A DNA stretch of 64,000 nt, from sequence record OR525702.1; one strand, given 5' to 3'. Each line of letters begins with the position of its first letter. Position 1 is the first letter of the stretch. This document shows positions 5,144 through 6,739 of this stretch, piece by piece. The notes beneath the pieces were generated by a model. That model did not search any database. It worked only from the letters and a program-made list of their open reading frames with translations, and had not been told where the DNA came from. The translations under genes and the position numbers were made by a program. The DNA is from Escherichia phage vB-Eco-KMB23.

Positions 5144-5219
5144 TGGTCGAGGCAGTAGGGATCGAACCTACGACCCAGGACTTAGAAGGTCCTTGCTCTT
5201 CCTTCTGAGCTATGCCCCG
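5144..5219 (-). tRNA. tRNA-Arg (anticodon UCU)
   Basis: Hand-folded cloverleaf: acceptor CGGGGCA/TGCCTCG, T-arm GTAGG-TTCGATC-CCTAC, anticodon loop CT-TCT-AA, encoded CCA. Confidence 0.8.
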
Positions 5220-5223
5220 TAAT

Positions 5224-5299
5224 TGGGGTGACCGATGGGAGTCGAACCCATGACTACGAGAATCACAATCTCGAGTTCTACCAACTGAACTACGGCCAC
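5224..5299 (-). tRNA. tRNA-His (anticodon GUG)
   Basis: Acceptor GTGGCCG/CGGTCAC, D-arm TAGTTCAGTTGGTAGAACT, anticodon loop TT-GTG-AT, discriminator C, CCA encoded. Confidence 0.75.
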
Positions 5300-5413
5300 A
5301 TTAATACCTACTCCAACAATCATGATGTCTTCACACGAAATTAAGAGAAGAGTGATCAGTTCAACCCCTATAATCGCGTCAAGTAGATATTAATGTGACA
5401 GTTGTCACAAATT

Positions 5414-5488
5414 TGGCGGACGTGATAGGATTCGAACCTATAACCAATCGCTTAACAGGCGATCGCTCTGCCATTGAGCTACACATCC
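5414..5488 (-). tRNA. tRNA-Asn (anticodon GUU)
   Basis: Acceptor GGATGTG/CACGTCC, T-arm ATAGG-TTCGAAT-CCTAT, anticodon loop CT-GTT-AA, CCA encoded. Confidence 0.75.
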
Positions 5489-5492
5489 AAAT

Positions 5493-5579
5493 TGGTGGGG
5501 AGTGGTGGAGTCGAACCACCCGAGTCGCAATGACAATGGATTTACAGTCCACACCGCTACCTCTACGGGATAACTCCCC
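5493..5579 (-). tRNA. tRNA-Tyr (anticodon GUA), long variable arm
   Basis: 87 nt; acceptor GGGGAGT/ACTCCCC, anticodon loop CT-GTA-AA, long variable arm, T-arm GGTGG-TTCGACT-CCACC. Confidence 0.75.
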
Positions 5580-5591
5580 TAATTCATAATT

Positions 5592-5666
5592 TGGTGGCCC
5601 TGGGTGGAATTGAACCACCATCTGGCGATTATGAGTCGCTTGCTTGAACCTTCCAGCTACAGGGCC
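5592..5666 (-). tRNA. tRNA with CAU anticodon (Met, or Ile if lysidine-modified)
   Basis: Acceptor GGCCCTG/CAGGGCC, anticodon loop CT-CAT-AA, T-arm GGTGG-TTCAATT-CCACC. Confidence 0.75.
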
Positions 5667-5667
5667 T

Positions 5668-5743
5668 TGGTGCTGATTGACGGAATCGAACCGCCGACCT
5701 TCTCATTACAAGTGAGTTGTTCTACCTACTGAGCTAAATCAGC
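5668..5743 (-). tRNA. tRNA-Thr (anticodon UGU)
   Basis: Acceptor GCTGATT/AATCAGC, anticodon loop CT-TGT-AA, T-loop TTCGATT. Confidence 0.75.
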
Positions 5744-5748
5744 AAAAC

Positions 5749-5838
5749 TGGCGGAGGCGATAGGATTTGAACCTATGAGTCGCCGGAGCGACTGCCGGTT
5801 TTCAAGACCGGTGCATTAAACCACTCTGCCACGCCTCC
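5749..5838 (-). tRNA. tRNA-Ser (anticodon UGA), long variable arm
   Basis: 90 nt; acceptor GGAGGCG/CGCCTCC, anticodon loop CT-TGA-AA, long variable arm, T-arm ATAGG-TTCAAAT-CCTAT. Confidence 0.8.
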
Positions 5839-5844
5839 AAATAT

Positions 5845-6495
5845 TTATATATTGTTAATTTGATTTAGAATTCTTTTTGCTTGAGTATGACTTACACCAA
5901 TATGCTTAGCATATTTAGATAATTCACCACGTTTAGAAAAATCATATAATTTAGAAATTTCTATTCTTCTTTTTCTTTCATCCGCAGAAACTTTTGATTC
6001 GTTTGCTTTTGCTATTTTACGTTTAGCTTCTTGAGAATGAGTTTTACCAGCAAAGCCATTCTTCATTAATCCATTTGAAGACCATCCTTTTAATTTTCCG
6101 TTAGAATGTGCCTTTTTAACACCCAATGAAATTAATTCGCGTTGCTGATCTGTCATAGGATAATTATTTATATGATCCCATCCACCTTCACCGCCGAGTT
6201 TTAAATTATACACATCTGGTTTATTTAAAAACTCTTCTGTGACAATATTTTTCTCAGCTTCAAGCATAGATTCTTTATCATCAAAATACTCTAATATTTC
6301 TTTAGAAAAATTTTCTATACCATATTTATCTTGGGCTCTTTTTAATAATTTACCAGAACCCATATATCCATCATCTAAATTTTCGGTAGAATGCACACCA
6401 ATATAAATTTTATTATTAATTTTATTTGTTATTTTATAAAGATAAAAATGCATATCAGTCCCTAATAAAGAACTGAGCGTCTCACGACGAGTCAT
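5845..6495 (-). mobile_element. segB: GIY-YIG homing endonuclease (segB-like) embedded in tRNA array
   Basis: 216 aa; N-terminal YKITNKINNKIYIGVHST...GYMGSG matches GIY-YIG motif; gene sits 6 nt from tRNA-Ser and 5 nt from tRNA-Gly. Confidence 0.8.
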
Positions 6496-6499
6496 AAAT

Positions 6500-6573
6500 T
6501 GGAGCGGATAATGAGAATCGAACTCACATCATCAGATTGGAAGTCTGAGGTAATACCATTATACGATATCCGC
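6500..6573 (-). tRNA. tRNA-Gly (anticodon UCC)
   Basis: Acceptor GCGGATA/TATCCGC, anticodon loop CT-TCC-AA, T-arm GTGAG-TTCGATT-CTCAT, CCA encoded. Confidence 0.8.
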
Positions 6574-6578
6574 AAATT

Positions 6579-6665
6579 TGGTGCGAGAAGTGGGACTCGA
6601 ACCCACAAGGAAATCATTCCGCAGCATTTTAAGTGCTGTGCCTTTACCAATTTGACCATTCTCGC
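6579..6665 (-). tRNA. tRNA-Leu (anticodon UAA), long variable arm
   Basis: 87 nt; acceptor GCGAGAA/TTCTCGC, anticodon loop CT-TAA-AA, T-arm GTGGG-TTCGAGT-CCCAC. Confidence 0.8.
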
Positions 6666-6666
6666 G

Positions 6667-6739
6667 CTGGGAATAAAGGACTCGAACCTTTGCATCCTGG
6701 AATCAAAATCCAGTGCCTTACCAACTTGGCTAATTCCCA
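6667..6739 (-). tRNA. tRNA-Gln (anticodon UUG), CCA not encoded
   Basis: Acceptor TGGGAAT/ATTCCCA, anticodon loop TT-TTG-AT, T-arm AAAGG-TTCGAGT-CCTTT. Confidence 0.8.

Follow-up and report, generated by a model that had tools for sequence, protein, structure and literature searches.

The transfer RNA (tRNA) regions of the T-even phages turn over through the action of a homing endonuclease, SegB, as was shown experimentally in 2008 and again in 2026. T4 SegB (NP_049745) recognises GGTTCRANTCC in the T-arm of tRNA genes and cuts just 3' of CCAR at the gene ends (PMC2330249). Its preferred cleavage site is the tRNA-Asn gene of T2L (PMC2330249; Brok-Volchanskaya et al. 2008), and in T4 × T2L crosses it homes, replacing the T2L region (PMC2330249). 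In T6, SegB is required for a tandem amplification of tRNA-Tyr and segB that overcomes Septu, which cuts tRNA-Tyr; rearrangement of the locus depends on SegB, the double mutation Y17A/G19A inactivates the enzyme, and SegB homologues are enriched beside tRNAs (Chihara et al. 2026, PMC13096335). Cleavage together with biased inheritance has been shown only for T4 SegB (PMC2330249), nuclease activity also for T6 SegB (PMC13096335). Here we examine 64,000 nucleotides (nt) of Escherichia phage vB-Eco-KMB23 (sequence record OR525702.1; the whole stretch is called the window), in which a gene for a GIY-YIG endonuclease lies inside a cluster of tRNA genes. Systems of this kind, in which a phage tRNA operon harbours a homing endonuclease of the SegB family, are already known. 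Like T4 segB, the gene is free-standing, and in both operons the downstream tRNA follows within about 6 nt.

How is this cluster composed? ARAGORN made 11 calls in the 64-kb window, every one of them on the minus strand within 4518–6739, and ten of them, from 5144 to 6739, are genuine tRNA genes. Read along the minus strand, the order is tRNA-Gln (UUG; 6666–6739), the first gene of the cluster, tRNA-Leu (UAA; 6579–6665), tRNA-Gly (UCC; 6500–6573), the GIY-YIG gene, tRNA-Ser (UGA; 5749–5838), tRNA-Thr (UGU; 5668–5743), a tRNA with the anticodon CAU (5592–5666), tRNA-Tyr (GUA; 5493–5579), tRNA-Asn (GUU; 5414–5488), a spacer of 114 nt (5300–5413), tRNA-His (GUG; 5224–5299) and tRNA-Arg (UCU; 5144–5219). 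These are exactly the ten genes, with the same spacer length, that had been folded by hand in the original prediction. Nine of them score 59–74 bits with the Rfam tRNA model (gathering score 29; tRNA-Gln 67.4 bits), while tRNA-Tyr, which has a long variable arm, is kept in the Rfam scan only as a sub-threshold match to the tRNA-Sec clan. Neither ARAGORN nor Rfam finds a tRNA-Pro anywhere in the window, as the hand folding had also suggested. The CAU tRNA had been left as either Met or Ile. Its best matches among 5,424 E. coli genomes are annotated as tRNA-Ile (81.6% identity over the full length); therefore it belongs with the Ile2 type and the Met option falls away. It presumably reads ATA, with a predicted lysidine modification.

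The phage belongs to Tequatrovirus. The window shows about 97% identity to teqdroes, KAW1E185 and AV122, and no record in the phage collection is an exact match. We compared its cluster with those of its relatives, taking their architectures from the annotations and re-deriving them with ARAGORN. In T4 (NC_000866) the order is Gln, Leu, Gly, Pro, Ser, Thr, Ile, segB, Arg, rnaD and rnaC; its eight tRNAs are those named in the original prediction. The window does not repeat this canonical order: Pro is absent, and Tyr, Asn and His, none of which occurs in the T4 cluster, are added. Two of these, Tyr and Asn, are standard in T2 (AP018813), whose order is Gln, Leu, Gly, Pro, Ser, orf133, CAU, Tyr, Asn, Arg and orf116. 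The window thus has the CAU, Tyr, Asn and Arg genes and orf116 in common with T2, but T2 retains Pro, lacks Thr and His, and has orf133 between Ser and CAU. T6 (AP018814) has Gln, Leu, Gly, Thr, CAU, Tyr, segB and Arg and is without Pro, Ser, Asn and His. RB68 and RB51 show the window order minus the 114-nt spacer and His, and the Shigella phage CM8 is without Tyr, Asn and His. The order of the window itself is that of RB18 and teqdroes, which match it in all ten tRNAs and in the endonuclease, with 96–97% DNA identity, and it recurs in AR1 and KAW1E185. The array had been predicted to be unlike that of T4, and so it is; it is not special to this phage, since RB18, teqdroes, AR1 and about 50 other public Tequatrovirus records share it. 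In a phage collection, the window-type 3' half of the endonuclease gene was joined to tRNA-Ser in 54 records, Gly, Pro and Ser were contiguous in 448, and a T4-type segB 3' half was joined to tRNA-Arg in 73. The cluster is a common natural allelic form of Tequatrovirus, the RB18/AR1/teqdroes type, already sequenced and annotated.

A gene-by-gene comparison separates genes held in common from alleles that only carry the same name. tRNA-Leu (87/87) and tRNA-Gly (74/74) are identical to those of T4, T2 and T6. tRNA-Thr matches T4 at 72/76 positions. On the other hand, Ser (90/90; 87/91 to T4; CCA encoded), CAU (75/75), Asn (75/75) and Arg (75/76) are T2 alleles. The Ile and Arg tRNAs that the window appears to share with T4 (47/77 and 50/80) are, going by these identities, different genes, non-orthologous alleles of those in T4. 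tRNA-Tyr differs from its T6 counterpart, the gene studied experimentally (PMC13096335), at 1 of 87 nt (86/87, and 85/87 to T2), and tRNA-His is absent from T4, T2, T6 and RB68. As a side observation, tRNA-Gln is unlike the T4, T2 and T6 genes at 8 of its 74 positions (66/74), next to a Leu and a Gly that do not vary among the four phages. In T6 the annotated tRNA-Thr (locus L007, 3143–3217) is not called by ARAGORN, is 68/76 identical to that of the window and may be impaired.

If T4 has tRNA-Pro between Gly and Ser, what has become of it here? The original prediction placed the GIY-YIG gene where T4 has tRNA-Pro, and alignment of the junctions bears this out. T4 and T2 read Gly-CCA ATTTAATTTA Pro at this place. 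At its 3' junction the window reads …AATCAAATTA|ACAATATATAAATATTT|GGAGGCG, ending in the start of tRNA-Ser, and the Klebsiella phage Mineola reads …AATCAAAATTA|CTCCGTATAGC, ending in the start of tRNA-Pro. From these four sequences it follows that the endonuclease cassette lies in the 10-nt Gly–Pro spacer, inserted within ATTTA^ATTTA, and that tRNA-Pro has been replaced by 17 nt of AT-rich filler, ACAATATATAAATATTT (5839–5855, minus strand), which contains the stop codon of the gene. The deletion of tRNA-Pro begins within one or two bases of its first nucleotide, flush with the 3' end of the endonuclease gene, and reaches as far as the start of Ser. The Gly and Ser genes that flank the endonuclease are identical to those of endonuclease-free T2. 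Mineola, Lion_ER11 and three metagenomic Jiaodavirus-like contigs encoding the protein P0002 have a homologous gene directly after tRNA-Gly, which extends 10 nt into tRNA-Pro and ends with its stop codon inside that tRNA.

The gene was predicted to be segB. How far does the resemblance go? The open reading frame (ORF), at 5845–6495 on the minus strand, encodes a GIY-YIG domain, recognised by Pfam PF01541 at 26.8 bits, above the cut-off of 22.6. A BLASTP comparison with T4 SegB gave 82% identity over 117 residues (15–131 of the long ORF) and nothing beyond. At the DNA level, positions 6165–6439 are 98.2% identical to T4 segB and positions 6165–6508 are 97.1% identical to T6 segB with its leader; positions 5845–6164 have no DNA match in either T4 or T6 segB. 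The protein accordingly divides in two, with the break directly after the conserved GGEGGWDH. Its 5' half (6165–6453) encodes a SegB-type catalytic domain, 96–98% identical to those of T4 (86/90) and T6 (88/90), and its 3' half (5845–6164) encodes a linker, a NUMOD3 motif and a C-terminal helix-turn-helix (HTH) of the Jiaodavirus-like type, unrelated to the C-terminus of T4 and T6 SegB (27/131 and 30/131). The pattern is reversed in the Jiaodavirus-like proteins: the N-terminal domain scores 64/90 against both metagenomic P0002 and Mineola, the C-terminal half 91/112 and 67/130. Sequence comparison thus shows the endonuclease to be a mosaic, a SegB catalytic domain joined to the NUMOD3/HTH half of a type found in Klebsiella T4-like phages. 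The name segB fits the N-terminal domain; it does not fit the C-terminal half, nor the insertion site, which is Gly|Ser in the window, Ile|Arg in T4, where the flanking Ile and Arg are other alleles, and Tyr|Arg in T6. The T6 protein likewise differs in its T4-type C-terminal half. Nor is the label 'segD' of the AR1, HY01 and PEC04 records apt, T4 SegD being only 37% identical over 159 residues. The T6 record AP018814, for its part, annotates segB as 'serine recombinase'.

Among the closest known systems are the endonucleases of Jiaodavirus-like Klebsiella phages (Mineola AWY07037, Lion_ER11 and P0002–P0004), which have the same succession of GIY-YIG, NUMOD3 and HTH, occupy the same slot directly after tRNA-Gly and are preceded by a homologous leader. 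The last 109 nt of the window gene are 93.6% identical to Mineola. They differ in their catalytic domain and in keeping tRNA-Pro, and the Mineola enzyme has one NUMOD3 repeat more. The protein database holds about 25 full-length collinear homologues of 196–220 residues at 40–77% identity, while T4-type SegB proteins cover just 52–59% of the query. Among the homologues the GIY-YIG residues Y6, Y17, G19, E67 and N83 are invariant; these include the Tyr, Gly, Glu and Asn by which a catalytic domain of the Seg family is recognised. Across 43 records the C-terminal half keeps an identity of at least 99%; in it the NUMOD3 motif lies above the Pfam cut-off and the HTH signal is weak. An AlphaFold2 model built from 27 sequences (mean predicted local distance difference test score, pLDDT, 84) gives a confident GIY-YIG domain, a linker of low confidence (residues 124–134) and a C-terminal domain of three helices, also confident. 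A sequence search of the PDB with the whole protein returned only a marginal match to I-TevI (E 0.75), and to go beyond it took a fold search. The order of modules, a catalytic domain, a flexible linker, NUMOD3 as a minor-groove element and a C-terminal HTH, is that of I-TevI, the endonuclease of T4 td. I-TevI is intron-encoded, unlike the window gene, which is free-standing and is present or absent at the homologous locus among close relatives (54 against 448 records), and the similarity is weak (29% over 77 aligned residues). The linker of I-TevI contains a zinc finger.

Where does the protein begin? The gene had been described as packed within 5–6 nt of both flanking tRNAs. This is right at the 3' side, where the stop codon (5845–5847) is followed by tRNA-Ser starting at 5838. 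At the 5' side it would hold only for a start at ATG 6495. The real start is most likely ATG 6453, because it aligns with Met1 of T4 and T6 SegB and is preceded by a Shine–Dalgarno sequence, and this would give a protein of 202 residues and leave a leader of 46 nt (6454–6499) with the other, in-frame ATG inside it. Counted from 6453, the catalytic residues receive the numbers Y17 and G19, as mutated in the T6 study. The leader, CCA|ATTTATGACTCGTCGTGAGACGCTCAGTTCTTTATTAGGGACTGAT ATG, is common to the window and Mineola, where it follows Gly, and to T6, where it follows Tyr; Mineola has GTG in place of the upstream in-frame ATG. As in the window, the T6 leader is 46 nt long and begins right after the CCA end of a tRNA. 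The window leader folds at −14.5 kcal/mol (z −2.3) into a hairpin (6455–6476) that pairs the Shine–Dalgarno AGGGA and was also flagged in a separate site scan. All three substitutions in T6 and Mineola preserve the pairing. In T4 segB the leader is unlike in sequence, but there too an RNA hairpin over the ribosome-binding site and translational control have been proposed (PMC2330249); the leader hairpin of the window gene parallels that proposal.

A second part of the cluster also points to the Jiaodavirus-like phages. Most of the Asn–His spacer and tRNA-His (5397 down to 5223) is 88.6% identical over 175 nt to the Gln–spacer–His segment of the Jiaodavirus-like contigs L014 and L015. The spacer is homologous to their Gln–His spacer, and tRNA-His is identical to that of L014 at 75/76 positions. 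Other tRNAs and the Gly–endonuclease segment are 78–80% identical to the same contigs. Apart from an insert of 18 nt, TGTGACAACTGTCACATT (5392–5409, minus strand), the homology runs from just after the CCA of the upstream tRNA to the CCA of tRNA-His. The insert, which is palindromic, contains the inverted repeat GTGACA-AC-TGTCAC and is absent from the homologous Jiaodavirus-like spacer. A cross-genus origin in a Jiaodavirus-like lineage therefore seems probable for the His block, and the same may be said of the C-terminal half of the endonuclease. Could tRNA-His instead be a duplicate of the neighbouring tRNA-Asn with one base changed in the anticodon? The two are identical at only 46/77 positions, against 75/76 for the Jiaodavirus-like tRNA-His, and we reject this. 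For the spacer we also considered and rejected a decayed tRNA, for which Rfam gave no hit at E values up to 1, and a promoter, since promoter-like sites occur at chance level (11 found, 10.1 expected).

What process, then, has given the cluster its form? The original prediction proposed remodelling mediated by the homing endonuclease. This is the best-supported reading, on circumstantial grounds, because the gene occupies the Gly–Pro slot, 17 nt stand in place of tRNA-Pro, and CCA ends coincide with three of the cassette edges: the endonuclease cassette has its left edge at the CCA end of tRNA-Gly, and this edge and the two of the His block each lie right after CCAA. The composite site GGTTCRANTCC…CCAR is present in 8 of the 10 tRNAs, against 0 expected by chance. 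Further support comes from two relatives in which an endonuclease gene, or a relic of one, is paired with a lost tRNA. In T2, which lacks Thr, orf133 takes the place that Thr has in the window, between Ser and CAU; the C-terminal half of its product is 43% identical to the window protein (PHROG 16521) and there is no GIY-YIG domain. In CM8 a gene for an HNH endonuclease is found at the position of the missing tRNA-Gln.

We consider it probable that the locus is an RB18-type tRNA operon, with a mosaic homing endonuclease in its Gly–Pro slot, that has been shaped by endonuclease-driven exchange of cassettes. Going by homology to T4, leftward transcription of the minus strand would start upstream of tRNA-Gln and end at a terminator-like hairpin after rnaC. 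It would yield a single precursor, from which host processing enzymes would cut the tRNAs. The endonuclease would cut endonuclease-free Gly–Pro–Ser alleles of co-infecting relatives; repair would copy the cassette in, and tRNA-Pro would be lost during the process. Cuts of the SegB type at tRNA 3' ends, with recombination at the conserved T-arm and CCA, would swap cassettes of spacer plus tRNA, both within and between phage genera. On this account tRNA-His is a later addition, and Tyr and Asn are extras of the T2 type.

Several observations weigh against this account. We infer the target site of the window endonuclease from its position only, and tRNA-Gly, immediately upstream of the gene, departs from the consensus published for T4 SegB. 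The loss of Pro and the insertion may be separate events, since no Gly|endonuclease|Pro|Ser intermediate was seen among the Tequatrovirus records searched. RB68 and RB51 have the endonuclease without the His block, so that the two imports are not necessarily linked. The domain swap could have run either way: the window type may be ancestral and T4/T6 SegB the chimera, or the reverse. The identity to the Jiaodavirus-like gene is uneven (62–77% in the N-terminal part and 82–93% in the C-terminal half, DNA) and allows either history.

Might the differences from T4 mainly reflect another strategy of codon supplementation, the phage carrying the tRNAs that match its own codon usage, as the original prediction also suggested? 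We compared codon usage in 69 non-overlapping ORFs of the window (19,575 codons) and in a small host sample, 39 annotated E. coli genes of one 50-kb region (14,001 codons). The codons of the shared tRNAs are indeed enriched in the phage: AGA 18.7-fold, ATA 5.5, TCA 3.7, GGA 3.2, ACA 3.1, TTA 1.8 and CAA 1.4. The Gln, Leu, Gly, Ser, Thr, Ile2 and Arg tRNAs thus read A-ending codons enriched 1.4- to 18.7-fold. Asn (1.57-fold) and Tyr (1.52-fold) rank second and third in enrichment among the amino acids. The most enriched, however, is Lys (1.71-fold), for which there is no phage tRNA. tRNA-His was gained although His is used at only 0.62 times the host frequency (CAT 0.82, CAC 0.34), and tRNA-Pro(UGG) was lost although CCA is enriched 3.05-fold. 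With His depleted and CCA still in demand, supplementation fails for the two allele-specific changes. It explains the core set and the T2-type extras, not the gain of His or the loss of Pro; the encoded anticodons fit demand for the core set, Asn and Tyr, and this much of the suggestion stands. Moreover, the gene content changes block by block, with endonuclease genes and CCA ends as the boundaries, and does not follow single codons. As the main cause of the differences from T4 we regard codon supplementation as rather unlikely.

Another possibility is that tRNA-Tyr, and perhaps the other two extra tRNAs, Asn and His, counter tRNA-cutting nucleases of the host by serving as spares or decoys, and that an endonuclease of the SegB type moves or amplifies them. 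The tRNA-Tyr of the window is all but the same gene (1/87 nt different) as the one whose SegB-dependent amplification in T6 overcomes Septu (PMC13096335), and the tRNA-Tyr of T5 rescues phages from retron-Eco7 (PMC11555353). In the papers examined we found no defence system targeting tRNA-His or tRNA-Asn. Colicin E5 cuts the four tRNAs with GUN anticodons, and Tyr, His and Asn are three of them. The window endonuclease does not lie beside Tyr, and the 718-bp repeat unit of T6 does not apply here.

tRNA-His, unexplained by codon demand, bears on this possibility through an oddity of its own. G at position −1 with C73 is the main identity element for the bacterial histidyl-tRNA synthetase, and the G is normally encoded in the gene (PMC9976931). 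The window gene has the GUG anticodon and C73, but T at −1 (5300), and so departs from bacterial tRNA-His in having no encoded G−1. The E. coli counterpart is 80.3% identical and carries G at this position. Its anticodon loop is the same as that of the phage, and resistance to cleavage through an altered loop is unlikely. T at −1 is found also in the tRNA-His of Mineola (L010, 1483–1558), L014 (2038–2113) and one Serratia phage (L011, 3999–4074). A scan of viral contigs (loci L019–L138) gave at least 38 tRNA-His genes, a small sample with a bias from the search pattern, which we divided into genes in clusters (at least four tRNAs within 4 kb) and solitary genes (one to three tRNAs nearby). Among the matches listed, T stood at −1 in 10 cluster genes and G in 2, whereas the solitary genes had T in 4 and G in 22 (Fisher's exact p = 1e-4 for these listed genes, which are not independent by descent). 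Our literature search found no paper commenting on a missing G−1 in the tRNA-His of phage clusters. Taken together, a counter-defence role for the extra tRNAs is possible but doubtful.

A bolder version joins these elements. The endonuclease would be a functional SegB variant given a new specificity by its swapped HTH half; its homing would delete Pro and move cassettes from Jiaodavirus-like phages into Tequatrovirus, and tRNA-His would be a poorly charged spare or decoy in counter-defence. That all of this should be true at once seems to us improbable.

Might the endonuclease gene, on the contrary, be a decayed, non-functional remnant without a current role, as the annotation 'truncated SegB-like protein' in RB51 and RB68 implies? 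The protein is 19 residues shorter than T4 SegB and lacks its C-terminal module, and a true relic of the HTH-type family does exist in T2 orf133. But the ORF is intact and retains the invariant residues of the GIY-YIG domain, and collinear homologues of 196–220 residues are the norm for the family, so that the gene is not truncated. The near-identity of the C-terminal half across 43 records, the confidently folded model and a leader whose Shine–Dalgarno-sequestering hairpin is kept across genera also speak against decay, and we think it very unlikely. That the order is an artefact of assembly or annotation, or a set of chance tRNA-like hits, has practically no likelihood left: its sole support is one spurious ARAGORN call, a 'Lys' at 4518–4611, and it is already refuted by the agreement of two independent detectors (ARAGORN and Rfam) and by the same order at 96–97% identity in many independently sequenced phages.

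The arrangement in itself is of low impact, being annotated already in dozens of public T4-like genomes; the cluster is a tidy example of reshuffling driven by a selfish gene, ordinary for this phage group. What it offers is a case of natural domain shuffling, in which one catalytic domain is found with two unrelated DNA-binding halves, at two sites, in one operon, and a comparison of the two SegB forms could reveal how target specificity is re-programmed. It adds evidence for an exchange of tRNA cassettes across the genera of T4-like phages, with breakpoints in CCA ends, and against codon demand as the reason for gaining tRNA-His and losing tRNA-Pro. The missing G−1 is a small oddity with a bearing on the debate over whether phage tRNAs serve translation or counter-defence. 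In the literature searched we found no description of the anatomy of the domain swap, of the precise replacement of tRNA-Pro or of a cross-genus origin for the His block and the C-terminal half: no paper was found on 'SegB-like' together with tRNA, and the 2026 study of T6 (PMC13096335) is silent on RB18, RB51, AR1 and any helix-turn-helix variant.

Beyond tRNA-Arg the operon continues, all on the minus strand, with orf116 (4775–5125; PHROG 3355, E 9.5e-55), a gene of unknown function that matched no Pfam family. It lies between tRNA-Arg and rnaD and occurs in T2, RB68 and RB18; it is absent from T4 and T6, whose tRNA-Arg abuts rnaD. Positions 4436–4775 are 90% identical to the T4 stretch that holds rnaC and rnaD (L003, 1826–2169), and by this homology the rnaD counterpart lies at about 4664–4778 and that of rnaC at about 4519–4657; Rfam has no family matching either in the window. 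After rnaC, a hairpin resembling an intrinsic terminator (4445–4468, minus strand) marks the end of the operon. The eleventh ARAGORN call, a 94-nt 'tRNA-Lys(ttt)' at 4518–4611 on the minus strand, falls inside the homologue of rnaC (species 1 RNA), has no Rfam hit and is not called in T4, RB68 or teqdroes; we treat it as a tRNA-like artefact, not a tRNA gene. The call includes the T-loop motif GTTCGAATCC (4531–4540).

Some minor observations concern the relatives and the upstream end of the cluster. The HNH gene of CM8 (L005, 2604–3212), at the tRNA-Gln position, is another endonuclease gene replacing a neighbouring tRNA in this operon. T2 orf133 (L008, 5711–6112; AP018813, 67710–68111), an HTH-only relic, is misannotated as 'tail sheath monomer'. 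Upstream of tRNA-Gln we looked by eye for a middle promoter with a MotA box; the candidate −10 element abuts the start of the tRNA, and we claim no promoter. Between this upstream region and trna.2, at a site corresponding to about 6845–6854, the window, T4 and teqdroes lack an extra ORF of 516 bp that is present in RB18 (L004, 3018–3533), T2 (L008, 6739–7254) and several other relatives.

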